DNA of 64,000 bases from an uncultured Acidimicrobiia bacterium (GCA_963792895.1 CAWBYA010000008.1:373495-437494); one strand, 5' to 3'. Shown: positions 20,935-49,871, numbered from the stretch's first letter. Translations and numbers: made by a program. Notes: a model not told the origin generated them from the sequence alone.

Positions 20935-21450
20935 CTACTTCTTCTTCTTCTTGCTCTTCTTGCTCGACCCGGAGCTCTCGCTCTCGATCTTGTACCGAGT
21001 CTCCACCGTCCCGATGGTCGAGCCGTCATCGCTGAACTCGGTGTAAGTGACCTTGATCTCCTCGAAGCTGTTGGCGATGACCACGGTCGGCGGTCCGGCT
21101 TCGTCGTTGCCCGATGCGTTGATCTGGTACGACGTCACCATGACGTTCGTGAGCTCGTATGCGAGGTAGGTGACCCGGGTCCCGCCGTACGTGGCGGTCA
21201 GCTCGACATGGAGCTTGGGGACGACCTCGCCCTTCACGCACTTTTCCTGCAGCTTGGGCGACGCCTTGTCGTAGTCCATGGTGAGCACCATGTCATCGAC
21301 GACGGCAGCCCCGCGCCTGCGGCTTTGCCCGGTTGCGCCACCTCCCGGCCGGCGCACCCCCCAGTCGAGGGCGAGGAGATCGATCCACTTGTCGTGGTGA
21401 GCGTCCCGCGACTCCCCATCGACACCGTCGTAGTTCGCAAAGATGGCCAT
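20935..21450 (-). CDS. hcp: Hcp-family protein (type VI secretion tube protein homolog) with Ser/Lys-rich C-terminal tail
   Basis: MAIFANYDGVDGESRDAHHDKWIDLLALDWG...KASPKLQEKCVKGEVVPKLHVELTATYGG...YLAYELTNVMVTSYQ...VIANSFEEIKVTYTEF aligns along its length with Hcp1 hallmarks (e.g. P. aeruginosa Hcp1); tail SESSGSSKKSKKKKK; GC about 60% vs about 70% flanks; alternative upstream start at 21486. Confidence 0.8.
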   Translation of the reverse strand: MAIFANYDGVDGESRDAHHDKWIDLLALDWGVRRPGGGATGQSRRRGAAVVDDMVLTMDYDKASPKLQEKCVKGEVVPKLHVELTATYGGTRVTYLAYELTNVMVTSYQINASGNDEAGPPTVVIANSFEEIKVTYTEFSDDGSTIGTVETRYKIESESSGSSKKSKKKKK

Positions 21451-22096
21451 CGCACGCTCCGTGTTTGCAGCATCGAACCGAACCAATCGCTCCAGAACCT
21501 ATCGCAACTGGGATGGATGTGCGGCCCGGGCCCACGCTGCAACCGGTGCCGTCGAGGCTGAAAGGTCGACTTCGTCGTCGGTCATCTCCGGCGCCATGCT
21601 GATTCCGGAATGCCCTCTGCGGTTGCGGGCCCCGCCGGCACGCTCAACGGCTACCTCGGCATATCCGAGTCCCATTCCTCGACGCCCAAGACCAACACCG
21701 GTCGATGCACTCATGGACGTGGGCGGCATCCCCGTTTGCAGACTCTGTGATCTGCTCGCTACAAAGCTCGAGTCGTCGGTGACCGTGGTGCGCTCGGGGA
21801 TTGCTTCGACCTGCTCACGATCGAGCGCGACACCCGGTGATGGAAGGCGCCCACGGCGGCACCCCTTCTTCACCTCGCGGTTGGACAGCCGGTCTGAGGC
21901 GGACGCATGACCTTGGCTCAGTCGCCACTGTCGGCAGCCGTCGGTCGGCCGCATGGAACGCGCCGAGTAGTCGACAAGCCGCGCCTGACCAAAGCGCGAG
22001 GTGCCGTTTTTCCGATACTTCACAGGACGTGCGTTCGTGTCGGAGATGCGGTTGATCGGCGTGGTCGGAGGGCCGGCGGCGCCTAGAGTCCGATGC

Positions 22097-24573: not shown

Positions 24574-24661
24574 AGGGCGGTGCGGAAGGATAGGGAGACG
24601 GGTGAAAAAGGCCAAGCCGCCCCATTGCGTTGTCCCCGGACCCGGGTACGCTGCCCTTGGG

Positions 24662-26044
24662 ATGCAGGGCAGGAAACGCCTCGGGGGGATCATCGCAGCA
24701 GCAGCGCTGCTCGCAGCCGCGTGCTCTTCTCCCGCTGCGACCACCGCAGCCGGAACAGCCGGCCCAAGCCCCGAACCCGGCGCAACGACGACCGTTGCCA
24801 TCTCTTCAGATGGTGCGACGACGCCACAGCAACCCCCTTCGTGTGACGCGACGCCGGACCTCGCCGGCGGCGATCCGCAGCCGTGGCATACCGACGTCAC
24901 CGTCGAGGCCACGGCTTTCCAGGAACCGGGTGCCGATGGGCCAGGTATCCGGGCCGTCGTGTATCCGCACCCGGATTATCGCGGCAAGCCGTGGTCGCAG
25001 TGGGGGCAGGGAGTCGTTCTCGCCGACGGCCGGTTCCTGTCCGCGATCGGCGACCACTTCGGGGCAGACGGGAACTCGTTCATCTACGAGTACGACCCTG
25101 CGACGAGCACGCTCGTCCAGATCGCAGACGTCCTTTCGCTCGTGGACCACACGGCCGGCGAGTGGGGCTACGGCAAGATCCACGCCCAGATGGTGGAACT
25201 CGGCTGCGGCGAGGTCTACCTGTCGACCTATTGGGGCTCTCGCCGCAACCTCACGTACACCGACGAGTACCAGGGCGATCTCCTCTTTCGCCTCGACCCT
25301 GCGGGCCGCACGAGCGCAGAGGTCGGCGTGATCCTGCCTGAGCACGGCGTCGCGTCGATGGCCGGCTGGTCGCACGGCGGTCTGCTCTACGCAGAGGCCG
25401 CCGACCCGTTCGGCCAGAAGACGGGCTCGTTCGTGGTCCTCGATGCCGCCACTGGTGGGCAGGTGTTCGAGGATGCCGACGACGCCCACGGCGGCTACCG
25501 CGCCGTCGCCGTCGACGCTGCAGGTCGGGCGTACATCACCTGGAACGAGACCTCCCTCGCCCGCTACGACCCGGATACCAACACCCTCACACCCCTCGAC
25601 GTGACGATGCCGGGCGGGATACTACGCGCCGTGACGGTTCCCGACGCAAACGGCACGATCTTCGCTGCGACCAGAGATCCAGCCGTGTTCTTCAGCCTCA
25701 CGGAAGACGGCACGATCACCGAGCTCGGCCCGGCTCGCGGCTACACCACTTCGATCGCTCTCTCCCCAGACGGGAGCCGCTTCTACTACGTGCCAGACGC
25801 CCACGGTGGTGCGTGGCGTGAAGGGACGCCGCTCATCGCCGTAGACACCACCACCGGTGAGGAAGCGGTCATCGCCGAGCTCCAGCCGATCGTCGGGGAA
25901 GCGCTCGGGCTCAAGCTCGGCGGAACCTACAACGTCGCCGTCGACGAGTCGGGCAGCCGGATCTATGTCGGCCTCAACGCCGGCGAGCTGGCGGGCGGGG
26001 AGAGCTTCGGCGAGGTCGTGCTCGTCGTCGTCACCCTGCCGTGA
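24662..26044 (+). CDS. lipoprotein with predicted beta-propeller domain
   Basis: 460 aa; signal peptide ending in lipobox LAAAC; Ala/Thr/Pro-rich linker; repeated beta-strand-rich segments (YEYDPATSTL..., YITWNETSLARYDPDTNTL...); 4-nt overlap with downstream gene. Confidence 0.5.
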   Translation: MQGRKRLGGIIAAAALLAAACSSPAATTAAGTAGPSPEPGATTTVAISSDGATTPQQPPSCDATPDLAGGDPQPWHTDVTVEATAFQEPGADGPGIRAVVYPHPDYRGKPWSQWGQGVVLADGRFLSAIGDHFGADGNSFIYEYDPATSTLVQIADVLSLVDHTAGEWGYGKIHAQMVELGCGEVYLSTYWGSRRNLTYTDEYQGDLLFRLDPAGRTSAEVGVILPEHGVASMAGWSHGGLLYAEAADPFGQKTGSFVVLDAATGGQVFEDADDAHGGYRAVAVDAAGRAYITWNETSLARYDPDTNTLTPLDVTMPGGILRAVTVPDANGTIFAATRDPAVFFSLTEDGTITELGPARGYTTSIALSPDGSRFYYVPDAHGGAWREGTPLIAVDTTTGEEAVIAELQPIVGEALGLKLGGTYNVAVDESGSRIYVGLNAGELAGGESFGEVVLVVVTLP

Positions 26045-27741
26045 AGCGGCTCGCGGCCGTCCTGGCGCTGTTGCTCGTGGCTGCAGCTTGTTCGGGCGCC
26101 ACCGCCGACACCGTCGTTCCCGCACGTGAGTCGGCTCCCACGAATGATGCATCGGGGACGGCCGCCACTGCCCCGCCGGCAGCAGGCTCGGAAACGACGG
26201 GCGACGGCATCACCTGCTGGGCCGCCCCGGCAGCCGGGGGCTCGCCGGGCACGACCTTCGAGGACGTCACCGCCGCATGGGGTCTCATCGATCCGCTCAC
26301 CGGGATGCGCGGCCACGCTGCCGCATGGGGTGAGGTCGGCGCCGCCCACAGAGCCGACCTCTTCGTCGGCACCTTCGCCACTGCCCGCTCCGACATCTAC
26401 GTCGAGAGGGGTGCGACCGGCCCATCACCCGACCGGCTCCTGACCGACGACGGTGAGGGCTTCGCCATGGACTCCGGGTTTCCCCAGTCGTTCGGACGGA
26501 CCAGCGGCGCTGCATTCGCCGACCTCGACGGGGACGGCGACCACGATCTCGTCGTATCCCGCAACGCAGCGGAGCGAGATCAAGAGGGCGCGCCTACCCA
26601 AGTGCTGGAGAACACCGGATCGGGCTTTGCGATCGTCCCGGATGCCGGCATCGACCCGACGCTCGGCGGAAGATCCGTTGGGGTGCTCGACGTCGACGAA
26701 GACGGGCTGCTCGACCTCGTGATCATCGAAGACCGCTACCGCGGCGGATCCAGCCGCCTCTATCGCAACCTCGGCGACCTTCGTTTCGAAGACGCGACGA
26801 CGGCTCTCGGGCTCGGTGACGACGTCGAAGGGCTTGGAATCGCAACAGGCGATCTCAACAACGATGGCCACACCGATGTCTTCGTCGCCGGATCGAACCG
26901 GCTGTTCGTCGGAACGGGCTCGCGGCTGGCCGAAGCCGACGGCGCAGCGCTCCAGTGGGAGACGTTCGGGAACGAGGACGACGTGGCCGGAGCTGCCATC
27001 GCCGACGTCAACCGCGACGGATGGCTCGACCTCGTCGTCGGGCACCACTACAACAGCACTCTCAGCCAGGGCCAGCAGGTCCCGGTGCGGCTGTACCTCA
27101 ATCGCACCCGCGACGCCGGGGCGGCTCCTGTCCTCGAAGACGTGACTGAAGCGGCGGGCTTGATCGGGCTCCCGACGAAGGCGCCCCACGTCGAGTTGGC
27201 CGACCTCGACAACGACGGATGGCCCGACATCGTGACGACGGCGTCCGCCGACGACGGCATGCGGCCCGCCGTGTTCCGCCACCTCGGCCTCGTCGACGGC
27301 GTCCCCCGTTTCGAGGCGCCATCCGGGCTCGGGGCCGCCCAATACTGGGTGACCGGACCCACCGCCGACGTCGACCACGACGGCCGGCTCGACATCCTCC
27401 TCGTCGAGTGGGAGCCCTCGCTCCCGTCTCTGCTCCTCCACAACACCTCGGCGTCCGGCCATTGGCTGGAAGTGTCAGTCGGCCCCGAATTCGGCGGTGG
27501 CGTCGGCACCCGTGTCGATATCTATGCGGCCGGCGGAGCCGGCGACTCTGCGGCGCTCCTGGGCAGCCGCGAGATCGTTGCATCCCTCGGCTACACGGCG
27601 GGCGTACTCCAGGTCGCGCATTTCGGATTGGGAGACGCAACGACGGTCGACGTCATCGTCACGCCACCCCGAGGTGCCGAGCCCGTCACCGTCGACGGCG
27701 TCGCCGCAGACCAGCACATCCGGCTCCCCGGCGGCTGCTGA
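26041..27741 (+). CDS. FG-GAP/VCBS-repeat lipoprotein with C-terminal ASPIC/UnbV domain (CRTAC1-like)
   Basis: 566 aa; lipobox LLVAAAC; six D-x-D/N-x-DG-x-xD calcium-type repeats (DLDGDGDHDLVVS, DVDEDGLLDLVII, DLNNDGHTDVFVAG, DVNRDGWLDLVVG, DLDNDGWPDIVTT, DVDHDGRLDILLV); C-terminal RVDIYAAGG...HFGLGDATTVD. Confidence 0.7.
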   Translation: MKRLAAVLALLLVAAACSGATADTVVPARESAPTNDASGTAATAPPAAGSETTGDGITCWAAPAAGGSPGTTFEDVTAAWGLIDPLTGMRGHAAAWGEVGAAHRADLFVGTFATARSDIYVERGATGPSPDRLLTDDGEGFAMDSGFPQSFGRTSGAAFADLDGDGDHDLVVSRNAAERDQEGAPTQVLENTGSGFAIVPDAGIDPTLGGRSVGVLDVDEDGLLDLVIIEDRYRGGSSRLYRNLGDLRFEDATTALGLGDDVEGLGIATGDLNNDGHTDVFVAGSNRLFVGTGSRLAEADGAALQWETFGNEDDVAGAAIADVNRDGWLDLVVGHHYNSTLSQGQQVPVRLYLNRTRDAGAAPVLEDVTEAAGLIGLPTKAPHVELADLDNDGWPDIVTTASADDGMRPAVFRHLGLVDGVPRFEAPSGLGAAQYWVTGPTADVDHDGRLDILLVEWEPSLPSLLLHNTSASGHWLEVSVGPEFGGGVGTRVDIYAAGGAGDSAALLGSREIVASLGYTAGVLQVAHFGLGDATTVDVIVTPPRGAEPVTVDGVAADQHIRLPGGC

Positions 27742-34899: not shown

Positions 34900-35409
34900 G
34901 TGATGAGCAAGACTCCCGAATCTGAGCTTTCAACCCTCGGCCGGTTCCTCGATGCCTATCGCGGGGCCTGTCTGTTCAAGCTCGACGGGCTCTCAGAGGG
35001 CGACGCCCGCCGGCCGATGGTTCCCTCTGGGAACTCGTTGCTCAGCATCGTCAAGCACCTCGGTTACGTCGAGCGCTGGTGGTATCGAGCAGTGCTGGCG
35101 GGCGAGGATCCGGAGTTTCCTTGGAGCGACGAGGACCCCGATGCCGATTGGCGTCTCGAAGAGTCGGACACGGTGGCATCCGTCGCCGCGTTCTATGCAG
35201 CTGAGTGCGACGTGAGTCGACGCATCCACGAAGCCCTCGACGATCCTGAGGTGAAGGTCACGTTCGGCCCAAACGAGTCCCCTGTGCGCGACATCGTGGT
35301 CCACATGATCGAGGAGACGGCTCGCCACGCAGGGCACATGGACATCATGCGAGAGCTCATCGACGGCGCCACCGGCGGCTTCGCACCCGGAGGGGCCCCG
35401 TGGGCCTGA
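34900..35409 (+). CDS. DinB/DUF664-family (mycothiol-dependent-enzyme-like) protein
   Basis: 169 aa; LSIVKHLGYVERWWY and HMIEETARHAGHMDIMRE four-helix-bundle His motifs. Confidence 0.6.
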   Translation: MMSKTPESELSTLGRFLDAYRGACLFKLDGLSEGDARRPMVPSGNSLLSIVKHLGYVERWWYRAVLAGEDPEFPWSDEDPDADWRLEESDTVASVAAFYAAECDVSRRIHEALDDPEVKVTFGPNESPVRDIVVHMIEETARHAGHMDIMRELIDGATGGFAPGGAPWA

Positions 35410-36451: not shown

Positions 36452-37470
36452 GGTGCAAACACCCTCTCCCCAACCTCCTCAGGGTTGGGGAACGGCGCCG
36501 CCTCGGCTTCGGCAACCGCCTCTGCTATCTCACCCTGGGCCCTCTCGTCGATCCCCCGCAGCACCTCCGCGGGGGTACCCCGGGTCACCAGGCGGCGCGC
36601 ATACGCCGCTACCGGATCACGCGCCTCCCACTCGGAGAGCATCGCGTCGGGCACGTATTCGGCGCCGTCGTGGATGGCATGCCCCAGCATGCGCATCGTC
36701 TTGGCCTCGATCAGGCTCGGCCCACCGCCCGACCGAGCCCGCACGAGCGCTTCTTGCGTGGCCAGGTGCACGGCCTCGACGTCGTTGCCGTCGACGATGA
36801 TCCCTGGGATCCCATATCCGGCTGCACGGTTGGCGATGTCGGGTACGACCGTCTGCTCGCTGAGCGGCGTCGAATAGGCGTACTGGTTGTTCTCGACCAC
36901 GAGGACGAATGGTGCCTGGTACACGGCGGCCATGTTCACCGTCTCGTGCCAGCCCCCGGTGCTGCTCCCGCCGTCGCCGATGAAGGTGAGTGCGGCTCGG
37001 GGCTCGCCCCGCATCTGGAAAGCCATGGCAGCGCCGAGCGTCACCGGCATCGACATCGGGAGGTGACTCACGAACCCGATGATGCCGAGCGAGAGGTCGC
37101 CAAGACCATGCAGATTGGCGTCACGTCCCCGCGTCACGCCGGTCTCCTTCCCGAGCAGGTTGCCGAAGATGCGAGCAGGGCTCATCCCTCGCACCAGGTA
37201 GCACCCGAGATCACGATGCATCGGTGCGACGACGTCGTCGGGACCGAGGGCGAAGCCTGCGCCGACGGCAACGGCCTCGTGCCCTCGCTCGCTGAAGGCC
37301 CCGCCGAGGCCGCGGCCTTGTTTCCACATCGCGACCATCCGGTCGTCGAACGCCCGAGTCAGGCGCATCCAGTAGTACACCTGCAGCGAGTCGTCGTGCG
37401 AGAGCGGGCTCAGCAGATCAGGGTTCCATTCGGTCATGGGGAGCGAGCCTACCCAGGACCACCACGGCAC
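36448..37470 (-). CDS. 2-oxoacid dehydrogenase E1 component alpha subunit (TPP-dependent)
   Basis: YRMMRLTRAFDDRMVAMWKQGR, GDGGSSTGGWHE TPP motif; start may be internal Met at 37437. Confidence 0.85.
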   Translation of the reverse strand: MPWWSWVGSLPMTEWNPDLLSPLSHDDSLQVYYWMRLTRAFDDRMVAMWKQGRGLGGAFSERGHEAVAVGAGFALGPDDVVAPMHRDLGCYLVRGMSPARIFGNLLGKETGVTRGRDANLHGLGDLSLGIIGFVSHLPMSMPVTLGAAMAFQMRGEPRAALTFIGDGGSSTGGWHETVNMAAVYQAPFVLVVENNQYAYSTPLSEQTVVPDIANRAAGYGIPGIIVDGNDVEAVHLATQEALVRARSGGGPSLIEAKTMRMLGHAIHDGAEYVPDAMLSEWEARDPVAAYARRLVTRGTPAEVLRGIDERAQGEIAEAVAEAEAAPFPNPEEVGERVFAP

Positions 37471-37529
37471 GGCCGAGAGGGAGCGGCGGAATCGACCGTT
37501 CCCGTCACGCGCCGTATGCTCGCGGCCCT

Positions 37530-38045
37530 ATGGAGGGGTGGTTCTTCGTCGTCGCTGCGCTCTTGATCGGCGCCGGCTTCCTGAAGGTTCGGGACCCTGC
37601 GCCCACGCAGGGCGCCCTCGCCGCGGCATCACTGCCGTCGGGGGCATGGCCGGCGCTCACCCTCGGTGTCGGCGAGATCGTCGTCGGCTCGTACGGGCTG
37701 CTCGCCGGCGGACGGCTCGGCGGTGTCGCGGTTGCCGCCATCTACGGAGGATTCGCGGCTTTCGTTCTCGTCGCGCTGCGACGGAAGCTGCCACTGCAAT
37801 CGTGCGGCTGTTTCGGCAAGGACGACACCCCCCCGTCGCCGGTCCATGCCGTGACCAACGTTCTCGCCGCCGTGGGCGCCATCGGGTACGCACTCACGTC
37901 TGCGCCGTCCCTGCCGGAAGTGATCGCCTCCCAGCCGGGATGGGGTTTCCCCTACCTCGTGTTCCTCGCAGTGGGCGTCTACGCGCTCTACCTGATGCTC
38001 GCCGAGCTGCCCCGGCTTCGCCTGATCGTCCGGGGGCCGGCGTGA
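37530..38045 (+). CDS. MauE-like (methylamine-utilisation protein E family) membrane protein
   Basis: 171 aa, four TM helices, conserved CGCFG motif between TM2 and TM3. Confidence 0.65.
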   Translation: MEGWFFVVAALLIGAGFLKVRDPAPTQGALAAASLPSGAWPALTLGVGEIVVGSYGLLAGGRLGGVAVAAIYGGFAAFVLVALRRKLPLQSCGCFGKDDTPPSPVHAVTNVLAAVGAIGYALTSAPSLPEVIASQPGWGFPYLVFLAVGVYALYLMLAELPRLRLIVRGPA

Positions 38046-38866
38046 GCACCCGGCTGGTTGAAGCAACCGCCGGCTTCCTCGGTCGAAGGACCAGCAGGCG
38101 CGGCTTCCTGCGTCGCGCGGCCATCGTCGGCTCGGCGCTCGCTGCCGCCCCCGCAGCGTATGTCCTCCGTCCGACCACCGCGTATTCGGCGATCGTCAAG
38201 ACCTGCAGCGACTGCCCGTCCGGATCGCGATGTTGCGGCGGATACACCGAGTTCTGCTGCGCCATGTCCGGGGTCAACACGTGCCCTCCGGGCAGTGTCA
38301 TCGCAGGCTGGTGGCGGGCCGAGGGCTCCGGCTACTGCGATGGCGGGTCCCGCTACTACATGGACTGCAACACCGCAGACTGCGGGGGCTGCGGCTGTGG
38401 GTATTCGGGCACGTGCTCGGACTCATGCGTCGACTGCAGCTGTGGATGCGCCAACAACGACTGCAACCTGAGGCAGGCGTGTTGTGTCCGGTTCCGGTAC
38501 GGCCAATGCAACCAGCACATCGAGTGCGTCGGCCCGATCATCTGCCGGGTCGTCACCTGCGTGCCGCCGTGGGAGTGGGATTCGTCGTGCTCGAAGGCCG
38601 ACGCCCGCGACGACAACACCCGATTCCACGATGCGGCATGTCTCCGGCCGTCGCTCGTGCGCCAGGCGTACCCCGGCGTCGTGTCGGGCGCCACCTTCGA
38701 GCTGCGCGAGTCACTCAGCACAGGCATCCCTACGGAGAAGTACGACTACGGGCTGCCGGGCGACATCCCAATCATGGCGGACTGGTCCGGCTCGGGCCTG
38801 GAGACGGCCGGACTGGTGCGGGGGCGCGCCATGGGGCCCTGGACGCTGGTGCGCTCACGTGGCTGA
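38042..38866 (+). CDS. Tat-exported cysteine-rich protein with C-terminal FG-GAP repeat (possibly 5-prime part of a longer frameshifted gene)
   Basis: GTG start overlapping mauE-like stop; twin-arginine signal SRRGFLRRAAIVGSALAAAPAAYV; 26 Cys in about 150 residues; C-terminal YDYGLPGDIPIMADWSGSG repeat. Confidence 0.5.
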   Translation: MSTRLVEATAGFLGRRTSRRGFLRRAAIVGSALAAAPAAYVLRPTTAYSAIVKTCSDCPSGSRCCGGYTEFCCAMSGVNTCPPGSVIAGWWRAEGSGYCDGGSRYYMDCNTADCGGCGCGYSGTCSDSCVDCSCGCANNDCNLRQACCVRFRYGQCNQHIECVGPIICRVVTCVPPWEWDSSCSKADARDDNTRFHDAACLRPSLVRQAYPGVVSGATFELRESLSTGIPTEKYDYGLPGDIPIMADWSGSGLETAGLVRGRAMGPWTLVRSRG

Positions 38867-38874
38867 TCCGCCAA

Positions 38875-39363
38875 GTGCCCGGGCCAGGCGACCCCGACCT
38901 CGTCGTGGAGTACGGAACCGCAGGCGACGTGCCCGTCGCCGGTGATTGGAATGGCGACGGCGTCGACACGATCGGGGTCGTCCGGGGCAACCGCTGGCTG
39001 CTGAGCAACCACAACGCCGGGGGCACGGCAGACATCGATATCGTGTTCGGCGAGCCCGGCGACATCCCTGTGGCGGGCGACTGGAACGGCGACGGTGTCG
39101 ATACGCCGGGCGTAGTCCGGGGAACACGGTGGATACTGCTCAACGGCTTCGACCCAGCGGGCCCTCGGGTCGAATTCGACTTTGGGCCTGCCGACGGCGT
39201 CCCCATCGTCGGCGACTGGACCGGGGCAGGGCGCCATCTGCCGGGGCGCTTCGTCGCCGGGTCTTGGCAGCTTCGGCTGTCGCTGTCGGACGGACCGGCG
39301 AACAGCACCTTTTCGTTCGGCGACCCGAACGGGGTGCCGGTGGTGTGGGGCCGGGTGCCATGA
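38875..39363 (+). CDS. FG-GAP repeat protein (likely continuation of preceding gene across a 1-nt frameshift)
   Basis: three tandem units GD-x-PVAGDWNGDGVDT-x-GVVRG-x-RW; no signal peptide of its own; first in-frame GTG at 38875. Confidence 0.45.
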   Translation: MPGPGDPDLVVEYGTAGDVPVAGDWNGDGVDTIGVVRGNRWLLSNHNAGGTADIDIVFGEPGDIPVAGDWNGDGVDTPGVVRGTRWILLNGFDPAGPRVEFDFGPADGVPIVGDWTGAGRHLPGRFVAGSWQLRLSLSDGPANSTFSFGDPNGVPVVWGRVP

Positions 39364-40070
39364 CCGCTCTCGTCGTGTTGGAAGCGGTCGTGATCGTGCT
39401 GCTCGTCGTGCTCGTCGCCGGGCTGCTGCGCAGCCACGCCGAGATTCTCCGCAGACTCCACGAGCTCGGCGCGGGCGAAGCCGAGCCAGACCAGGCTGCG
39501 GCGATGGTGGCCGCACCACGCGGCTCGCAGCCGCTCGCCGCCACCGAACTGGCCGGGGTCACGCCCGGCGGGGGCGCCGCTTCAGTTGCGCTTGCCGGGT
39601 CGCGCGGTCTGGTGCTCGTGACGTTCCTCACGTCCGGCTGCTCCTCGTGCCGTCTGTTGTGGCGCGGGCTCGCCAACCCGATTGCGATGCCGCGCAAAGA
39701 CATCCGCACCGTGGTCGTCACGAAAGGCCCAGAAGAGGAGAGCCCGGCCACGATCCGCAACCTCGCCCCTTCGGATGCGATCGTCATCATGTCCAGTCCT
39801 GCGTGGGATGCGTTCCGGGTGCCGGTCGCGCCCTATTTCGCCCTCGTCGACGCCGGGCGCGGCCATGTCATCGGCGAGGGTGCTGCGGGATCGTGGCCCC
39901 AAATCGCGGAACTCGCCGGACGAGCACTGGGTGACGCCACCGGCGATTCCCGTCTCCACGCCGGGACGGCACAACGTCTCGAGGACACCGACGAAGAGCT
40001 GCGCCGGGCCGGTGTCGAGCCCGGCGACCCGAGCTTGTGGGCGCCGCCATCGAACGGTGGTGGACGGTGA
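39360..40070 (+). CDS. TlpA/MauD-like membrane-anchored thioredoxin-fold protein
   Basis: N-terminal TM helix, redox motif LTSGCSSC, thioredoxin-fold spacing; ATG overlaps upstream stop (ATGA). Confidence 0.6.
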   Translation: MTALVVLEAVVIVLLVVLVAGLLRSHAEILRRLHELGAGEAEPDQAAAMVAAPRGSQPLAATELAGVTPGGGAASVALAGSRGLVLVTFLTSGCSSCRLLWRGLANPIAMPRKDIRTVVVTKGPEEESPATIRNLAPSDAIVIMSSPAWDAFRVPVAPYFALVDAGRGHVIGEGAAGSWPQIAELAGRALGDATGDSRLHAGTAQRLEDTDEELRRAGVEPGDPSLWAPPSNGGGR

Positions 40071-40144
40071 CGATCACATCGCTGGGAGTGCTCGTCGCGG
40101 TGTTCGCAGCACTCCGATCGCATTGGTCGCCGTGAGGGGAGTCG

Positions 40145-40729
40145 ATGCTCTCGAGCATCCACCCGCTCGGCGAGCGGGCACGTCACAACCGATGGGTGCT
40201 CACGGTGACTGCCTTCTCGGTGGGCGCTATCGGAGCGGCCGGCGCCGTCGGGGCCGTCCTCGGCATCGCGGGTTCGTACGTGCTCGGCGGACCGACGGGT
40301 AGAACGGTCGCCATCATCGGGGTGGCGGCTCTTGCGGCGGCGGGCCTCGACCTCCTCGGCGCCCGGCCGCCCGGACCCCACCGCCAGGTCAACGAACGCT
40401 GGATCGGCGCGTATCGAGGATGGGTGTACGGCGCAGGATTCGGCGCCCAACTCGGTGCGGGGGTTGCCACGTACATCGTGACATGGGGTGTGTGGGTCGT
40501 CCTCGCTGCCGAGGTGGCCAGTGGATCTGGTGCTGCAGGGGCTGTGGTCGGGCTTGCGTTCGGTGTTGGCCGGTCGCTCCCCGTCGTCGCGGGCCGGTGG
40601 ATCAACACGCCGAGTCGACTGGGCTCCTCGTCGGCTGTCATGCGCCGGCTCGCAGGTCCTGCGTTCCGCCTGATGGCCGCCGCCACTGCCGTTGCAGGCA
40701 TCGCCGGGATCTTCGCGGGAGTGGTGTGA
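40145..40729 (+). CDS. polytopic membrane protein, unknown function
   Basis: 194 aa, Gly/Ala-rich, 4-5 predicted TM helices, no Cys. Confidence 0.45.
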   Translation: MLSSIHPLGERARHNRWVLTVTAFSVGAIGAAGAVGAVLGIAGSYVLGGPTGRTVAIIGVAALAAAGLDLLGARPPGPHRQVNERWIGAYRGWVYGAGFGAQLGAGVATYIVTWGVWVVLAAEVASGSGAAGAVVGLAFGVGRSLPVVAGRWINTPSRLGSSSAVMRRLAGPAFRLMAAATAVAGIAGIFAGVV

Positions 40730-40733
40730 CGTG

Positions 40734-41231
40734 GTGCGCCTGAACAGCGGCGGTGTCGGGTTCGAGTTGCCGTCAGGGTGGGAGGGTCAGATCGACCCGG
40801 GCTCAGGCACATGGCGAGAGTCCCCTCGCATCGGGACGACGGAACCACTCCCCGAGACGCATCCGGACGGAGCGGTGCGACGCGTTGTCGCCCACGTCGC
40901 CAACTTCCCGTTGCCCCCTGGGCGAGGAGACTTCGGCAACGGGGCAGTCCAGACGATGCGAGCGGGCGACGTCTTCGTCACATTGTTCGAATACGACCCG
41001 GAATCGGCGCGGACGCCGCTCTTCCGCCACGAGGGACTCCCCGAGGTCGGCGCCGGCGACTTCGAACCCGCCGCTCTCCAAAAGCCGGTGCCGGGCGGCT
41101 CCGCGATGCAGCGCTTCTTCCGCACCGCCGGGCGTGCGTTCTGCCTCTATGTCGTCGTCGGCAGCCACATCGACCGCGCCGACGTCGTGCCGACGATTCG
41201 CGAACTGTTGGCCGGCGTGGAGATCACGTGA
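40734..41231 (+). CDS. hypothetical protein
   Basis: GTG start immediately after upstream stop; 166 aa; strong third-position GC bias. Confidence 0.4.
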   Translation: MRLNSGGVGFELPSGWEGQIDPGSGTWRESPRIGTTEPLPETHPDGAVRRVVAHVANFPLPPGRGDFGNGAVQTMRAGDVFVTLFEYDPESARTPLFRHEGLPEVGAGDFEPAALQKPVPGGSAMQRFFRTAGRAFCLYVVVGSHIDRADVVPTIRELLAGVEIT

Positions 41232-42229
41232 AGCGGTGGGTCGCGCTTGTCGTGGTCGGAGCCCTCGCCACCGCCGTCGCGGCAGGCCCCCTCGTTGCGG
41301 AGCCCGCTGAAGCGGTCGTGGTGGACTCGCGGTTCACGGACGACGACTGGAACATCCACGAGCCCAACATCAACGCCATCGCCGCGGCGAGCATCACCTT
41401 CGGCTGCAATCCACCGACCAACGACCACTACTGCCCCGATCGCCCGGTCACCAGGGGCCAGATGGCGGCTTTTCTCACCCGTGCATTCGGCTACACCGAG
41501 CGGCTCGCCGACCCCTTCACCGATGACGACGGATCGATCTTCGAAGCCGACATCGAACGTCTGGCCGCAGCAGGCGTGACGCTCGGCTGCAATCCGCCTG
41601 CCAACACGAGGTACTGCCCGGACGATCCAGTCTCGCGGGCGCAGATGGCGAGCTTCCTCGCTCGTGCCCTCGACCTCCAACCGTTGGCGGCCGGGCCGTT
41701 CCAGGACATCTCGGGCAACATCCACAGCTTCACCATCAACGCAATCGCCGCCGCCCGCATCACCTATGGATGCAATCCTCCGGCCAACGACCTCTACTGC
41801 CCGAACGACCTCGTGACCCGCGCCCAGATGGCGAGTTTCCTGGCGCGGGCGCTCGACCTGTCGCCGATCCCGAGCCGCCTCTCGCTCCGCCCGGGATCGG
41901 CATGCGACCGGGTGCGCACCTCGTGCACTGCGACGCTCGCCATCCCCGCCGGCCGCACATTCGAGCTCCGCGAGGGCTGGTACAACGTGCTCCCGTTTGC
42001 CCCGGGCGAGGAAGCCGCCTTCAGGGGGCCGGATACCACCTTCACTGCGACGCTCGACGGGACGCCGCTGTCAATGGCGACACTCGACACCGCATCCACC
42101 ACCATGGCAACGCGTGAGTGGCACGCTGTGATCGCAAGCGTCGGTGCAGGGACCCACGTGCTACGCGGCGTCTGGCAGTGGGACGGCACCACCAACCTCA
42201 CCGTCGTGGTGACCATCGTCGCCGGGTAG
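41228..42229 (+). CDS. secreted protein with three SLH-like (S-layer homology) domains
   Basis: signal peptide; three approximately 60-aa repeats F-x-D-x4-H/F-x3-I-x2-A/L-A-x3-T-x-GCNPP-x-N-x2-YCP-x-D-x-V(T/S)R-x-QMA-x-FL-x-RA; GTG overlaps upstream stop. Confidence 0.6.
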   Translation: MKRWVALVVVGALATAVAAGPLVAEPAEAVVVDSRFTDDDWNIHEPNINAIAAASITFGCNPPTNDHYCPDRPVTRGQMAAFLTRAFGYTERLADPFTDDDGSIFEADIERLAAAGVTLGCNPPANTRYCPDDPVSRAQMASFLARALDLQPLAAGPFQDISGNIHSFTINAIAAARITYGCNPPANDLYCPNDLVTRAQMASFLARALDLSPIPSRLSLRPGSACDRVRTSCTATLAIPAGRTFELREGWYNVLPFAPGEEAAFRGPDTTFTATLDGTPLSMATLDTASTTMATREWHAVIASVGAGTHVLRGVWQWDGTTNLTVVVTIVAG

Positions 42230-42366
42230 CGGGACCACCCGAGAACACTGCCGTGGCGCAGGCGACGAGTCATTGTGCCCGATGCGCTCGATCTGACCGC
42301 CTGGACCGCCGCGAAAGAGCCGGTTGCGGCCTGGCGCGATCGTGCACAGCGGGCCACGATTACGTC

Positions 42367-43338
42367 ATGGAAGCCCTTCACCCCGCAGGGAACGGATCCT
42401 CGACCGGGGACGAGGGCTCCGCCACGATGATCGACTGGCTGATGGAAGGGGATCCGGCCATCCGCTGGCAGACGATGCGTGACCTCGCCGACGCCGCACC
42501 GGCCGAGGTCGCTGCCGAGCGGGCACGGGTTGCGACGGACGGCTGGGGTGCGAGGCTTCTCGAGCTTCAGGACGACGAGGGAACCTGGGCCGGTGCGCTC
42601 TACAGCCCAAAGTGGACATCCACGACGTACACGCTGCTTCTCCTGCACCGGCTCGGCCTACCTCGCGGCCACCCCCAGGCCCTGGCAGGCTGCAGGGTGC
42701 TCTGGGATCGGGCCAAGTGGTTCGACGGCGGCCTCACGCTCGCCAAGACGATCAGGGAGCCGGAGACCTGCATCACCGGAATGCTGCTGCAGCTGGCGGC
42801 TACGTTCGGCCACGACGACACTCGTCTCGACGAGGCCGCTGCATGGCTCATCGGCCAGCAGCTTGCCGACGGAGGCTGGAACTGCGAGTCGATTCGCAGC
42901 GGCTCGCGCCACGGGTCGTTTCACACGTCGATCACGGTGCTCGAAGCACTGGACGCCTATCGGGGGGCCGACGGCGGGATTGCGGTTGCCAGGGCGATGG
43001 AGCGAGGCCGCCAGTTCTTCCTCGACCACCGGCTCTACTGCTCGCATCGAACGGGCGAGGTCGTCGACACGACCTTCACCCGCTTCCCGTTCCCACCGCA
43101 GTGGCACTTCGACGTCGTCCGCGGACTCGAGCACTTCCTGACGCAAGGCGTCGCACCCGACGAGCGGCTCGCCGGCGCCGTCGATGCCGTGTCACGAGCC
43201 CGTCGCCGCGACGGCAGGTGGCCCGTCTACCGGGCCTACCCGGGACGTCGATGGTTCCTGCTCGAACAGAATGGGCCCGGGCGCTGGTCGACGCTCCGTG
43301 CGCTCCGGGTGCTGCGCTGGTGGGGCGGCGCCGGCTGA
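42367..43338 (+). CDS. prenyltransferase/squalene-cyclase-like alpha/alpha-toroid repeat protein
   Basis: 323 aa; about six 45-50-aa repeats carrying Q/D-x2-DGGW motifs (LQDDEGTW, WFDGG, QQLADGGW, RRDGRW). Confidence 0.5.
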   Translation: MEALHPAGNGSSTGDEGSATMIDWLMEGDPAIRWQTMRDLADAAPAEVAAERARVATDGWGARLLELQDDEGTWAGALYSPKWTSTTYTLLLLHRLGLPRGHPQALAGCRVLWDRAKWFDGGLTLAKTIREPETCITGMLLQLAATFGHDDTRLDEAAAWLIGQQLADGGWNCESIRSGSRHGSFHTSITVLEALDAYRGADGGIAVARAMERGRQFFLDHRLYCSHRTGEVVDTTFTRFPFPPQWHFDVVRGLEHFLTQGVAPDERLAGAVDAVSRARRRDGRWPVYRAYPGRRWFLLEQNGPGRWSTLRALRVLRWWGGAG

Positions 43339-43370
43339 GCCACCGGACGCTGCCCCGCTACGCTCGCCCG

Positions 43371-43820
43371 ATGCGTCGCGTTGTTGCAGCCGGATTCGGG
43401 GTGGGTTGGATCCCTCGCCGGCTGTGGGGCAGCGACAATGGTGCAGGCACGTTTGGGGCGGCCGTAGGAGGCATCATCGGCATCGCCTCCTGGCTTGGCG
43501 CATGGTGGGTGGGCCTCATCATCGCCGTAGCCGCAATTGCCCTCTCGGTATGGGCATCCGGCCCGGAAGGCCGTGGCGGGGCAGATCCGGGTTGGGTGGT
43601 GATCGACGAGGTTGCAGGAGCCTTGGTCGCCGTCATCGGGCTCTCCGGTGTGGCGTGGGCCGTCGCCTGGATCGTGGCCAGGTTGGCCGACATCTTCAAG
43701 GTGCTCCCCGGCGTCGGGCAGGCAGAAGGTCTCCCTCCGCCGTGGGGCATCACTGCAGACGACGTTGTCGCCGGGCTGTACGGCTTGGCCGCCGGCTGGC
43801 TCGTCACCTGGCTCCTGTGA
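43371..43820 (+). CDS. pgpA: phosphatidylglycerophosphatase A
   Basis: 149 aa; DPGWVVIDEVAG signature, hydrophobic C-terminal half. Confidence 0.7.
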   Translation: MRRVVAAGFGVGWIPRRLWGSDNGAGTFGAAVGGIIGIASWLGAWWVGLIIAVAAIALSVWASGPEGRGGADPGWVVIDEVAGALVAVIGLSGVAWAVAWIVARLADIFKVLPGVGQAEGLPPPWGITADDVVAGLYGLAAGWLVTWLL

Positions 43821-43828
43821 GCCCGACG

Positions 43829-45409
43829 TCACTGCAGCCTGATGTAGCGCGCAGCGAGCACGCCCTCGAGCGCACGGAGCCGCTCCACGAGCTCGTCGTC
43901 CATGGACTGGTCGATGCTGATCCCCATCATCGCACCGTGGTCCGGCCCACGGCCGACCGCCATGTCGGCGATGTTGATGCCGGCGTCGCCGAGCAGCGTG
44001 CCGACCCGCCCAATGACACCGGGGGTGTCGGAGTTGCGAACCAACGCCATGTGATCGGCGATGGGGAATTCGATCTCGTAGCCGTCGACCTCGACGAGCA
44101 CTGCGCCGCGGTGGGCCATCACCGACCCGCAGATGGAGCGAGCTTTCCCTGCGACCGTGCCGCCGAGACGAACGACCGATCGGTAGTCGGCAGCCTCGGG
44201 CACGGCTTCCTCGCGCCAGGACATCCCGTGGCGGGCCGCCAGGACGGGGGCGTTGACGAACGAGACCGGGGTTTCGCTTGCGGATGCCAGCGTGCCCTTG
44301 ACGGCACTCAAGGCGATCGCCCGCACCGCATCGGCGATGTCCCGACCCCGTGCCGACACCGTCAGCTCGCTGGGGAGCCCGAAAGAGAATCCCGCGAATA
44401 TCCGCCCGAGCCGCTCGGCGAGGTCGACGTACGGTCTCGCTTCGACAGACACGCGCGGACCGAGATCGAGGTTCACGGCCGAAGGCACGAGCTCACCTGC
44501 GAGCGCCGCTACGACGGCCTCCGCAACCGAAGTGCCGGCCTTGTCCTGCGCCTCTTGGGTCGAGGCTCCGAGGTGCGGAGTCACGACGACGTTTGCGAGG
44601 CCGAAGAGCGGGCTCGTGGTGGTGGGCTCGGTTGCGAACACGTCGACGGCGGCGCCTCCCACCTGCCCGCTGGCGACGGCGGCGGCGAGGGCTTCTTCGT
44701 CGACGAGGCCCCCTCTGGCGACGTTGACGATACGAACACCCGGCTTGGCGCGGGCGAGAGCTGCAGCATCGATGAGACTCTCGGTGTCAGGGGTGCGGGG
44801 GAGATGAATGGTCACGAAATCCGACTCGGCAAGCACGTCGTCGAGTGGTGCCAACCGCACGCCGAGGCGCCCAGCGCGCTCGTCGCTCACGAACGGGTCG
44901 TAGGCGATGAGATGCATGCCGAACGCCGAAGCACGCTGCGCCACCAGAGTCCCGATGCGGCCGAGGCCGAGGATCCCGAGTGTCTTGCCGTGCAACTCGA
45001 CTCCTTGGAACCGCGATCGTTCCCATGCGCCGCCACGAAGGGAGGCGTCGGCCTCAGCCACTCGGCGGGCTTGAGCGAGCAGCAACGCCATCGTGTGCTC
45101 CGCTGCCGAGATCGTATTTGCGTCAGGGGCGTTCACAACCAAGACGCCTGCGGCTGTCGCAGCATCGAGATCGATGTTGTCGACACCGATACCGGCCCGA
45201 CCTACCACCCGCAGGAGCGGAGCGGCGGCGATGAGCTCAGCATCGACCTTTGTCGCCGAACGGACGATGAGGCCGTGTGCGGATGCGAGCCGATCGCCCA
45301 ATTCGGGTCGCGACAGACCGGCAGCGACGACGACATCGACCGAGGCGCGCAACAGGTCGAGTGCAGCCTCGGCGATGGTCTCGGCGATGACAACGGTGGG
45401 TCGGTCCAT
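43829..45409 (-). CDS. serA: D-3-phosphoglycerate dehydrogenase
   Basis: 526 aa; NAD Rossmann GLGRIG, catalytic R/H/E region, C-terminal ASB + ACT domains. Confidence 0.9.
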   Translation of the reverse strand: MDRPTVVIAETIAEAALDLLRASVDVVVAAGLSRPELGDRLASAHGLIVRSATKVDAELIAAAPLLRVVGRAGIGVDNIDLDAATAAGVLVVNAPDANTISAAEHTMALLLAQARRVAEADASLRGGAWERSRFQGVELHGKTLGILGLGRIGTLVAQRASAFGMHLIAYDPFVSDERAGRLGVRLAPLDDVLAESDFVTIHLPRTPDTESLIDAAALARAKPGVRIVNVARGGLVDEEALAAAVASGQVGGAAVDVFATEPTTTSPLFGLANVVVTPHLGASTQEAQDKAGTSVAEAVVAALAGELVPSAVNLDLGPRVSVEARPYVDLAERLGRIFAGFSFGLPSELTVSARGRDIADAVRAIALSAVKGTLASASETPVSFVNAPVLAARHGMSWREEAVPEAADYRSVVRLGGTVAGKARSICGSVMAHRGAVLVEVDGYEIEFPIADHMALVRNSDTPGVIGRVGTLLGDAGINIADMAVGRGPDHGAMMGISIDQSMDDELVERLRALEGVLAARYIRLQ

Positions 45410-47110: not shown

Positions 47111-49871
47111 ATGCCAGACGAAGAGCGCATCGAGCGCGACACCCGGCTCAGAGCGGACATCCGCCTCCTCGGCAACCTCTTGGGTGAGACCCTCGTTCGC
47201 CAGGAGGGCGCCGGCCTGCTCGAGCTCGTCGAAGACGTGCGAGCGCTCACGAAACGCATCCGGGGTGGGACAGACGACGACCGAGACGCCGCCGATGAAC
47301 TGACCCAGCTCCTCGCGCAACTCGATCTCGAGACGACGATCCAACTCGTCCGCGCCTTCTCGGCGTTCTTCTATCTCGCCAACGTGGCCGAGCAAACCCA
47401 CCGCCTCGATGAGGAGGGGGCCCGTTCGGGCCAGCGCGGCTGGCTCGCAGCGACCGTCGACCGTGTTCTTGCTGCCGACATGCCGGCGGAGATCCTGAGC
47501 GCCGTCGCCACCAGGCTGGAGTTGCGCCCCGTGTTCACGGCACACCCCACCGAGGCCGCCCGCCGCTCGATCCTCACCAAGACGGACCGGGTGGCAGATC
47601 TCCTCGAGCTCCGCGCCGACCCACGCCTCACAGACAGCGACCGCGACCGGATCGACCGGCGCCTCGCCGAGGTCGTCGATCTGATTTGGCAGACCGACGA
47701 GCTGCGTCGGGAGCGCCCCACCCCGATCGACGAGGCTCGCTCGGTGATGTATTACTTCGACGAGATCTTCCGCGAGGTCGCTGCCGAGCTGTTCGACGAG
47801 CTCGATCATCAGCTCGGCCGGCTCGGTATCGAGCTTCCGTCGACCAGCCGACCGCTCCACTTCGGCACCTGGGTCGGGGGCGACCGTGATGGCAACCCGA
47901 ACGTGACACCCGACGTGACGATGCGGGTGCTCCAGATGCAGCACGATCATGCGCTGCGCGAGCTCATCGCCGCCGTCGAGCAGCTGGCAACCGACCTCAG
48001 CTCGTCCGACCGGATCACACCCATCACCGACGAGCTGGAGATGTCGCTGGCGGGGGACGCCCGCGACCTGCCGTCGACCTACGAGGTCTTCTCCGACCTC
48101 TCCGCCGGCGAGGCCTACCGGCAGAAGTGCGCGTACGTCCACCAGCGCCTCATCAACACGCGACAGCGGCTCGCAGACGAGACCCCGCATCATCCGGGTC
48201 GGGACTACGGATCCGCCGACGCGCTGCTCGACGACCTGGCCGTGATGCGGCGGTCGCTCCTTGCTCATCACGGCGAGCTCATCGCACGTGGCTCGCTGGA
48301 TCGTCTCATCCGCCGTGTCGCCACGTTCGGGTTCCGGCTCGCCACGATGGATGTGAGGGAGCACGCGACAGCCCATCACGCTGCGATCAGCCAGCTCTAC
48401 GCCAGGCTCGACGTCGCCTACCCCGCCGACCCGGCCGAACGCACGGCGGTGCTGGCAGCGGAGCTGGAGAGCCGTCGTCCGCTGGCATCGCTCACGACTC
48501 GCCTCGACGACGGTCCGGCTCGTACCGTCGAGACCTTCCACACCGATCCGCAAAGCCCTCGACCACTTCGGCCCAGACACCATCGAGAGCTACATCGTGT
48601 CCGAGACCCGCGGCCCCGAGGACATCCTCTCCCCCGCCGTCCTCGCCAGGGATGCGGGCCTGATCGACCTCCACACCGGTGTGGCGCGCATCGGCTTCGT
48701 TCCACTCTTCGAGACGATCGACGAAGTGCGTGACGCCGGCGACCTCCTCGACGAGATGCTGACATGTGCGCCCTACCGAGAGATCGTGCGGCTGCGCGGC
48801 GACCTCCAGGAGGTGATGCTCGGCTACTCCGACTCCAACAAGCATGCCGGCATCACGACGTCGCAATGGGAGCTGTACAAGGCGTCTCGGGCGCTCCGCG
48901 ACGTCGCCAGCGGCCACGGCGTCGAGCTGCGCATCTTCCACGGCAGGGGCGGCACGGTTGGGCGGGGTGGCGGCCCGACCGGCGAGGCCATCCTGGCTCA
49001 GCCGTGGGGCACCGTCGACGGCCGGATCAAGATCACCGAGCAGGGCGAGGTCATCGCCGACAAGTACGGCCTCCCCCGCCTCGCCGCCTCCAACCTCGAG
49101 TTGACACTCGCCGCCACTCTGGAGGCGTCGTTGCTGCACCGTACCTCACGCCAGATCGAGCGATGTGCTGGCGAGGTGGGACGAGAGCATGGACGTGGTC
49201 AGCGATGCCGCCTTCGCCGCCTACCGAGGACTCGTCGACCTGCCCGACCTCGTGCCGTACTTCGTGACCTCGACGCCGGTCGAGGAGCTGGCGGCGATGA
49301 ACATCGGCTCGCGCCCGGCCCGCCGGCCGGGTGGCGGTGCCGACAACGTAGGCCTCGGCGGGATGCGGGCGATTCCGTGGGTATTCGGGTGGACCCAGTC
49401 GCGCCAGATCGTTCCCGGCTGGTTCGGTGTCGGCACCGGCCTGCCGCGCCGCTCGGTCCGCCGGTCTCGACGGCGCCATCGCCCACATGTACGAGCAGTG
49501 GTCGTTCTTCCGCACCTTCATCTCGAATGTGGAGATGACGCTGACCAAGACCGACCTCACGGTGGCAGAGCGATACGTCGAGACGCTCGTCGCCCCCGAG
49601 CACCGCCACGTGTTCGACGTGATCCGTGAGGAGCACGACGCGCACGGTGGCCGAGGTGCTGGCGGTGACGGGCCAGGACGACCTGCTCGACCGCTACCCG
49701 GTGCTGCAGCGCACGCTGCGCATCCGCGACGTCTACATCGACCCGATCTCGTACCTGCAGGCAGCGCTCCTGCAACGATCGCGCTCGGCTGCCGAGGGTG
49801 ACGATTCATTGTCGCGGGCGTTGCTGCTCACCGTCAACGGCTTGGCGGCAGGTCTGCGCAACACCGGGTGA
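47111..49871 (+). pseudogene. ppc: phosphoenolpyruvate carboxylase disrupted by about four frameshifts
   Basis: PEPC hallmarks in order but spread over five frames: a (47111-48550, ...RTVETF), b (48550-49160, [12 protein letters not shown]...[15 protein letters not shown]...[11 protein letters not shown]), e (49165-49450, [10 protein letters not shown]...GWFGVGTGL), c (49450-49640, [31 protein letters not shown]), d (49640-49871, [10 protein letters not shown]...[16 protein letters not shown]). Confidence 0.7.

Follow-up and report, generated by a model that had tools for sequence, protein, structure and literature searches.

A MauE/MauD-type gene cluster of Acidimicrobiia that probably folds and wall-anchors a cysteine-rich protein

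Introduction

MauE homologues replace DsbB in Escherichia coli, with a CXC motif as the active site, and MauD is the likely DsbA-like partner of MauE (bioRxiv 10.64898/2026.03.05.709764). In the mau cluster, MauE and MauD mature the six-disulfide small subunit of methylamine dehydrogenase. It was only in 2026 that MauE was proposed as a general DsbB-like disulfide-forming enzyme. Here we analyze a 64,000-nucleotide stretch of DNA from an uncultured Acidimicrobiia bacterium (GCA_963792895.1, CAWBYA010000008.1:373495-437494; the window), in which positions 40145–43338 hold four open reading frames, g1 to g4, downstream of a MauE/MauD-like locus. We find that g1, g2 and g3 are probably genes 4 to 6 of a conserved six-gene operon of Acidimicrobiia, whose first three genes encode a MauE-like protein, a secreted cysteine-rich (Cys-rich) protein and a MauD-like protein. 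This operon, a natural Actinomycetota case of a MauE system, probably serves to fold the very Cys-rich protein and to fix it on the cell wall.

The arrangement mirrors that of the mau cluster: a MauE-family protein with a CXC-F-G site lies beside a CxxC protein and an exported Cys-rich candidate substrate bearing a twin-arginine (Tat) signal. The locus differs from the mau cluster in that MauA, MauB and MauG are not present, Pfam and PDB sequence searches do not connect the Cys-rich protein with the methylamine dehydrogenase light chain, and the MauD-like protein falls into no curated family. It also differs in having two additional conserved genes, g1 and g2, and a substrate that would be displayed on the wall by means of SLH (S-layer homology) domains. 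The operon pairs MauE and a CxxC partner with an extreme candidate substrate and two conserved, uncharacterised putative accessory proteins, and g1 and g2 are concrete candidates for missing parts of the MauE pathway. For the SLH protein g3, the described points of comparison are the SLH trimers of Sap from Bacillus anthracis (3PYW) and of SpaA from Paenibacillus alvei. The ligand contacts in SpaA include SLH-Arg43 of the TRAE-type motif and SLH-Gly29 of the GIIxG motif (PMC6081394).

A six-gene unit is conserved across divergent loci

The gene order MauE, Cys-rich, MauD-like, g1, g2 and SLH recurs in at least seven Acidimicrobiia loci with differing flanks, and MauE heads the cluster in all related loci. 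In two complete or near-complete contigs of Acidimicrobiia metagenome-assembled genomes (MAGs; loci L004 and L006), the MauE gene is followed by genes for products of 439, about 240, about 195 and about 166 residues, then by the SLH protein gene, and then by pgpA and serA; neither locus has a counterpart of g4, the α/α-toroid gene that follows g3 in the window. The identical six genes in identical order are found in L014, L016 and L019. The flanks in L014 to L016 and L019 vary and include genes for peptidase M24, lipoyl synthase, PNPOx and sulfate assimilation. L015 lacks g1, its MauD-like gene being followed directly by g2 and then by the SLH gene (7327–8450). A scan of one genome per species recovered a five-gene core (MauE, Cys-rich, MauD-like, g1 and g2) in L010 to L013 at about 41% g2 identity, and L017 holds a g1 relative at 38% identity in the same core. 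The persistence of this core down to 38–41% identity, together with the start/stop overlaps GTGA, ATGA and GTGA along the cluster, would support the reading of the six genes as one functional unit. A first reading of the window, made from the sequence alone (the sequence-only reading), had joined g1–g3 to the preceding MauE/MauD locus, and the order kept in seven loci with different flanks bears this out.

Two of these loci carry features of their own. L010 (CAYVPD010000192.1) is a 3.9-kb contig binned as Gemmatimonadaceae, and its cluster proteins are nearly identical to those of the Acidimicrobiaceae MAG contig L011; it is probably a mis-binned contig rather than a case of cross-phylum transfer. 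In L017, the five-gene core is followed at 6027–6976 by a second thioredoxin-like gene (CAPC, with a weak AhpC-TSA match) and by a gene for a second small Cys-rich protein with a Tat signal (112 residues, 11 Cys).

In the window, the genes under study are same-strand open reading frames in a GC background of 67–69%. The MauE-like gene (37530–38045, +), the Cys-rich gene (38042–39363, +) and the MauD-like gene (39360–40070, +) are joined by a GTGA and an ATGA overlap, respectively. A gap of 74 nucleotides follows, and the ATG of g1 (40145–40729, +) is preceded by a Shine-Dalgarno sequence, GAGGGGAG. The g1 stop codon TGA ends at 40729 and the GTG of g2 (40731–41231, +) begins at 40731, so that the two genes adjoin without overlapping, whereas g2 and g3 (41228–42229, +, GTG start) share a GTGA overlap; a 4-nucleotide overlap at this junction is also called in L004, L006, L014, L015, L016 and L019. 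Of the start/stop overlaps that had been proposed among these three genes, the one between g2 and g3 therefore holds and the one between g1 and g2 does not. A scan of 37300–43900 found no promoter-like site, and terminator-like sites occurred at chance level, a result that is uninformative for a GC-rich genome.

The first three genes encode a MauE-like protein, a Cys-rich protein and a CxxC protein

The MauE-like protein matches Pfam MauE (PF07291) with 55.1 bits against a gathering score of 27 and carries the CXC-F-G site as SCGCFG. The MauD-like protein has an N-terminal transmembrane helix and a CxxC motif (GCSSC) whose cysteines, C94 and C97, are invariant in the alignment of its homologues (A9). 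A profile search of the PDB returned weak matches only, all of them thioredoxin-fold proteins (tryparedoxin, TlpA-like) aligned over the CxxC (E = 0.17–0.45). No match to either MauE or g1 was obtained by tblastn against 72,556 plasmids, where an annotated mau cluster would have allowed g1 to be set beside MauF; the literature on MauF yielded no usable comparison either.

The Cys-rich protein begins with an RRGFLRR signal (TIGR01409 Tat signal; score 18.6 bits, cutoff 16.7), followed by a domain of about 155 residues with 26 cysteines and then by repeats of the GDWNGDGVDT type. The gene is intact in L004, L006, L009, L014 to L016 and L019, where it encodes 439–445 residues. Twenty-two of the cysteines are invariant across two clades (alignment A3), and the domain is 52–91% identical. 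The protein has no Pfam relative and no sequence relative in the PDB. We considered whether the domain could be a methylamine dehydrogenase light chain (MauA, PF02975); no match was found in Pfam at E ≤ 0.1, nor in the PDB by profile or single sequence at E ≤ 10. The resemblance of a CPPG...W pattern to the light chain is thus no more than a lead, which these searches did not support.

In the window, the Cys-rich gene is interrupted by a one-base frameshift, an apparent deletion in a G-run near 38818–38836 (CGGGGGCGCGCC; the relatives imply one more G and read ...VRGARHG... through this point). The same assembly breaks the phosphoenolpyruvate carboxylase gene (47111–49868) four times, leaving five frame pieces compared with the 920-residue orthologue in L019. 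The frameshift is therefore probably an assembly error. The assembly carries many indel errors, and open reading frame calls in the window need care. The products of g1 to g4 are equal in length to their orthologues, suggesting that these four genes are intact.

SLH domains occur either fused to the Cys-rich protein or in a separate gene

The link between the Cys-rich protein and g3 is most evident when two clades are compared. In L010 to L013, three canonical SLH domains (Pfam 104–106 bits over three stretches) make up the C-terminal end of the Cys-rich protein, and in these four loci there is no separate SLH gene after g2. In the clade of the window, the Cys-rich protein ends instead in the GDWNGDGVDT-type repeats, and the cluster always encodes a separate g3 further on; the repeat-bearing Cys-rich protein and the separate g3 co-occur in seven loci. 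L017 has neither a fused SLH domain nor a separate g3. Nothing else ties g3 functionally to the Cys-rich protein as strongly as this complementary pattern, in cis in one clade and in trans in the other. By the logic of domain fusion, g3 would anchor the Cys-rich protein to the wall, and a specific contact between the proteins is to be expected from the pattern. That the unit concerns the cell envelope, as had been supposed from the sequence, is supported by the fusion of the Cys-rich protein itself to three SLH domains in the distant clade.

g3 is a triple-SLH protein with a cysteine pair in every repeat

The 333-residue product of g3 consists of a signal peptide, three SLH repeats (41327–41866, residues 34–213) and a C-terminal domain of about 120 residues (41867–42226), which has no Pfam match and belongs to no known family. 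With Pfam SLH (PF00395), the whole protein scores 36.0 bits against a gathering score of 20.8; this is the sum of three weak repeats, each of which stays below the threshold by itself. Among PDB sequences, the SLH trimer of B. anthracis Sap matches best (E = 0.012), and a precomputed PF00395 assignment exists for 108 of the 120 best homologues. As in Sap and SpaA, the signal peptide precedes three tandem repeats, each about 60 residues long and with a GIIxG-like loop glycine and a TRAE-type arginine. The loops read ITFG, VTLG and ITYG and the TRAE-type motifs TRGQ, SRAQ and TRAQ; G59, G120 and G181 as well as R76, R137 and R198 are invariant in 49 orthologues. The sequence-only reading had described g3 as a secreted triple-SLH-like protein, an assignment upheld by the Pfam score and the retained arginine and glycine motifs.

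In other respects g3 departs from Sap and SpaA, the weak single-repeat scores being one of them. The repeats, tandem GCNPPxNxxYCP...(T/S)RxQ units, align with canonical SLH domains except for a three-residue insertion with two cysteines (G-C-NPPxNxx-Y-C-P). All eight cysteines (C60, C69, C121, C130, C182, C191, C226 and C233) are invariant in the 49 orthologues. They form one pair per SLH repeat, beginning directly after the ligand-loop glycine, and a fourth pair in the linker. SLH-Trp13, which stacks on the pyruvylated sugar, is not conserved: the aligned position is occupied by Ile, His or Phe in all three repeats.

The GCNPP...YCP insertion had been considered unusual. It is instead typical of the lineage, as 112 of the 120 best database matches of g3 hold at least one such repeat. 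The carriers include amidases, M15 and VanY peptidases, SpoIID, VanW and propeller proteins labelled Acidimicrobiia. The Cys-stapled SLH subtype seems to be the wall anchor that this class uses as standard; our literature search for SLH domains in Acidimicrobiia turned up no paper. The cluster defines this disulfide-stapled subtype in a widespread, almost uncultured group. No further SLH-type repeats besides those of g3 are present in the window, and none of the roughly 40 window genes scanned encodes a PS_pyruv_trans domain (PF04230, CsaB-type). Two tandem N-acetylmuramoyl-L-alanine amidase (Amidase_3) genes at 125–2565 (−) both lack Cys-type SLH repeats, and a wall protein combining VanW, PASTA and PG_binding_4 domains is encoded at 10373–12388 (+).

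g1 and g2 form a putative membrane-plus-cytoplasm pair

The 194-residue product of g1 is a membrane protein with five predicted transmembrane segments, its N-terminus inside according to the positive-inside rule. Its family comprises 1144 representative clusters at E ≤ 1e-3, and 21 of 55 family members match Pfam DsbD_2 (PF13386; best E = 2.2e-7); the window protein itself has no Pfam match, to DsbD_2 or otherwise. The g1 family resembles DsbD/CcdA proteins (PF13386, PF02683) in being small, multi-pass and encoded next to thioredoxin-like genes. It differs in having five rather than six predicted transmembrane segments and in lacking the two relay cysteines: g1 contains no cysteine, and none is conserved in its family. 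The cysteine-relay electron transfer that defines CcdA/DsbD can therefore not operate in g1. The invariant residues, P7, R80, Q81, V82, W86, R91 and R143, all lie in positively charged, presumably cytoplasmic segments. From these features g1 appears to be a divergent, Cys-less member of the DsbD_2/CcdA superfamily, with the architecture and without the relay.

The product of g2 (166 residues) has no signal peptide and belongs to no Pfam family. Neither Pfam nor NCBIfam gave a significant family assignment for g1, g2, the MauD-like protein, the g3 C-terminal domain or, its Tat signal aside, the Cys-rich protein. Its AlphaFold2 model (predicted local distance difference test score, pLDDT, of 89) predicts an α/β fold of the PsbP/Mog1 type. 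Compared with proteins of this fold (PsbP, LpqN, MTC28, the type VI secretion immunity proteins Tsi3 and TplEi, and the DUF1795 chaperones), g2 shows 6–13% identity, a likeness at the level of the fold only. PsbP, LpqN and MTC28 are exported, whereas g2 has neither a signal peptide nor a lipobox. We detected only 141 homologues, all of them unnamed proteins and few labelled by source; those that are labelled come from Acidimicrobiia or Actinomycetes MAGs. In the 12 loci examined, g2 homologues never occur outside the context of this gene cluster. We suggest that g1 and g2 may act together as a membrane-plus-cytoplasm accessory pair, the weakest step of the model presented below.

The toroid gene g4 lies outside the conserved cluster

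Between g3 and a pgpA-like gene (43371–43820, +) lies g4 (42427–43338, +), which encodes a 303-residue cytoplasmic protein with no signal peptide or transmembrane segment. An alternative in-frame ATG at 42367 would give 323 residues; gene callers and a 99%-identical database entry use the 303-residue form. The four open reading frames that had been proposed from the sequence are real, with a length of 323 residues for g4 only if the upstream ATG is used. The pgpA-like gene, which marks the boundary, is the usual 3' neighbour of g3 in close relatives and is 72–74% identical by tblastn to the PgpA genes directly after the SLH gene in L004 and L006; serA lies downstream of pgpA on the opposite strand.

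The family profile of g4 matches squalene-hopene cyclase in the PDB (E = 6e-9), and its AlphaFold2 model (pLDDT 86) contains about 12 long helices. At the top of the Foldseek list stand Tpn2, squalene-hopene cyclase, drimenyl diphosphate synthase and MstE, with E-values of 1e-5 to 1e-3, together with small myxobacterial cyclases; TM-scores are only about 0.5 and the probability is 1.0, and farnesyltransferase beta subunits appear only at ranks 36–38 (E about 9e-3). As judged from profile and model, g4 is predicted to be an α/α toroid of the terpene-cyclase superfamily. No Prenyltrans (PF00432) match was found, although this family had been proposed as a check on g4. Pfam scores stay below gathering (SQHop_cyclase_N, 22.1 against 26.2 bits; SQHop_cyclase_C, 14.4 against 26.1), and the NCBIfam hopene_cyclase score is 19 bits against a cutoff of 431. 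Like class II terpene cyclases, g4 is an (α/α)6-type toroid with QW-like repeats, two of them full (QDDEGTW and QQLADGGW) and two partial, rather than the approximately six Q-x2-DGGW repeats counted initially; the toroid call and the lack of an Asp-rich motif stand. Neither DxDD nor DDxxD is present in g4, and DxDD is also absent from 115 of 120 homologues. Residues E113-T-C115-I116-T117 align with D374-V-D376-D377-T of squalene-hopene cyclase, and PExC[IVL]T is found in 119 of the 120 homologues. With E113-T-C115-I116 at the DxDD position, canonical protonation chemistry is unlikely in g4. Unlike class II cyclases, g4 is a single 300-residue domain in which an invariant E-T-C-I replaces the DxDD acid, scores below the Pfam gathering thresholds, and belongs to an uncharacterised family with no conserved neighbours.

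For comparison with the Zn site (Asp/Cys/His) of protein prenyltransferase beta subunits, E113, C115, C153, H162 and H166 are invariant in the g4 family, which yielded 7843 matches at E ≤ 1e-3 among 8000 candidates scored. The best 120 homologues are 66–74% identical, save for one 99% copy, and labelled relatives come from Cryobacterium, Mycobacteriaceae and Kineosporiaceae. The related loci L004, L006 to L016 and L019 have no g4: the junction between g3 and pgpA is empty in L004 and L006, and a PNPOx gene follows g3 in L019. Five contexts of g4 were compared, the present one between g3 and pgpA and four taken from L001, L002, L021 and L022: CoA-transferase/CBU_0592, SRAP/Clp_N, a Vgb-lyase-like gene, and ring-hydroxylating oxygenase/DLH. 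Its absence from relatives and its unrelated neighbourhoods suggest that g4 is a stand-alone cytoplasmic protein whose gene happens to lie here. We conclude that g4 is a lineage-specific insertion between g3 and pgpA, outside the conserved cluster; the earlier placement of g4 in the operon fails on the same two observations. This actinobacterial family is large, strongly conserved and unstudied, and it says nothing about the operon.

A model for oxidative folding and wall display, and its alternatives

The reading we favor, and consider reasonably probable, is that the six genes form a MauE/MauD-type oxidative-folding module for a wall-displayed Cys-rich protein, with g3 as its anchor in trans. 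From the family and fold assignments and the invariant cysteines, we infer who oxidises whom as follows. MauE would act through its CXC site as a quinone-linked oxidase of the DsbB kind and re-oxidise the membrane-anchored MauD-like protein, which putatively has a thioredoxin fold. The MauD-like protein in turn would form the many disulfides of the exported Cys-rich protein, with its 26 Cys in about 155 residues, and probably also the four invariant disulfides of g3. The SLH trimer of g3 would then bind the cell wall, while its C-terminal domain would hold the Cys-rich protein at the surface; in the sister clade, anchoring would be achieved in cis by the SLH domains fused to the Cys-rich protein. 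The physical contact between g3 and the Cys-rich protein is one that we infer from the domain fusion. The Cys-less g1, with its conserved residues presumably on the cytoplasmic side, and the cytoplasmic g2 would serve as accessory factors, as scaffold, escort or transporter, probably as a pair. A stronger form of this proposal is conceivable, although we hold it only tentatively: that the six genes are a self-contained assembly line for a new type of wall-displayed, hyper-disulfide-bonded surface protein, in which the Cys-rich protein and the disulfide-stapled SLH domains both mature through the oxidase pair, g3 is the tether in trans, and g1 and g2 are a novel accessory pair of the MauE pathway. 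In that form, the position of the SLH cysteine pair on the ligand-binding loop would make wall anchoring itself dependent on the redox state.

Several observations weigh against the favored reading. Export after folding, as implied by a Tat signal, does not fit easily with disulfide formation outside the cytoplasm. The MauD-like protein has no Pfam or NCBIfam match, and its thioredoxin fold is suggested by weak PDB matches (best E = 0.17). The cysteines by which DsbD and CcdA work are missing from g1, and its absence from L015 suggests that g1 may be dispensable. Hundreds of Acidimicrobiia proteins encoded away from MauE carry Cys-stapled SLH repeats, so that oxidation of these repeats need not depend on the operon. 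Finally, the frameshifted Cys-rich gene of the window could yet be a pseudogene.

We also weighed readings in which the Cys-rich protein has a different role. As part of a metal-handling module, it would be an extracellular thiolate metal binder or redox buffer, with g1 transporting the metal, g2 as its partner, and MauE and the MauD-like protein setting the thiol state. The density of 26 Cys in 155 residues would fit such a protein, as would the charged, cytoplasm-facing conserved residues of g1, the DsbD_2 matches of its relatives, two of which match the ArsG efflux-permease family, and the presence of metal and metalloid exporters in its LysE/DsbD superfamily. We nevertheless regard this as unlikely: none of the loci has His- or Met-rich motifs, a metal regulator, a chaperone or a P-type ATPase, g1 is absent in L015, and a MauE-type oxidase would convert the thiols to disulfides, to the disadvantage of metal binding. 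It is very unlikely that the cluster makes a RiPP-like (ribosomally made, post-translationally modified peptide) product or forms a toxin-immunity system, in which the Cys-rich protein would be the precursor or toxin matured by MauE and the MauD-like protein, g1 the exporter or immunity protein, and g2 an immunity protein. The Cys-rich protein is large (250–445 residues) and predicted to be anchored to the wall rather than released, and its Cys domain, at 52–91% identity, does not behave like the usually variable RiPP cores. Genes for a protease, leader recognition or an ABC exporter are absent, the cluster is embedded among housekeeping genes, and the PsbP/Mog1 fold of g2 is generic.

Other readings divide the genes differently. 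If g1–g3 merely adjoined the Mau-like genes, g3 would be an ordinary SLH wall protein with a small operon of its own. The 74-nucleotide gap and the good Shine-Dalgarno sequence (GAGGGGAG) before g1 make an internal promoter possible, and SLH modules of the g3 type decorate many unrelated proteins. An association kept over wide divergence and changing flanks, the finding of g2 homologues nowhere else in the 12 loci examined, and the complementarity of cis and trans SLH domains all speak against this reading, which has little probability. Still less probable is a four-gene operon in which the toroid and the SLH protein would cooperate to build the envelope or S-layer, the toroid working, for instance, on a polyprenyl-linked wall polymer. 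Isoprenoid-handling enzymes have the same toroid fold, all four genes share one strand, g3 and g4 are not separated by a terminator-like site, and the two are adjacent in two assemblies of about one species. However, in L004, L006, L014 to L016 and L019, it is pgpA, PNPOx, peptidase M24 or lipoyl synthase that follows g3, and g4 homologues about 70% identical are known from Cryobacterium, Mycobacteriaceae, Kineosporiaceae and others, the contexts, five in number, being unrelated. The gap between g3 and g4 is 137–197 nucleotides, and g4 has no signal peptide or transmembrane segment. A four-gene operon that includes the toroid is thus largely refuted by synteny.

Other genes in the window

At 24602–27738 (+), a 480-residue open reading frame with no Pfam match is followed by a gene for an FG-GAP_3/UnbV_ASPIC protein; in L016, a comparable pair (457 residues with no Pfam match, then a 544-residue FG-GAP_3/UnbV_ASPIC protein) adjoins the six-gene cluster. 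A 183-residue protein encoded at 20938–21486 (−) matches Pfam T6SS_HCP (Hcp) with 104 bits. Such a protein would not be expected in Acidimicrobiia, and the first-codon-position GC of its gene, 0.57, is below that of its neighbours. A mycothiol S-transferase is encoded at 34900–35406 (+), indicating a mycothiol-using actinobacterium.

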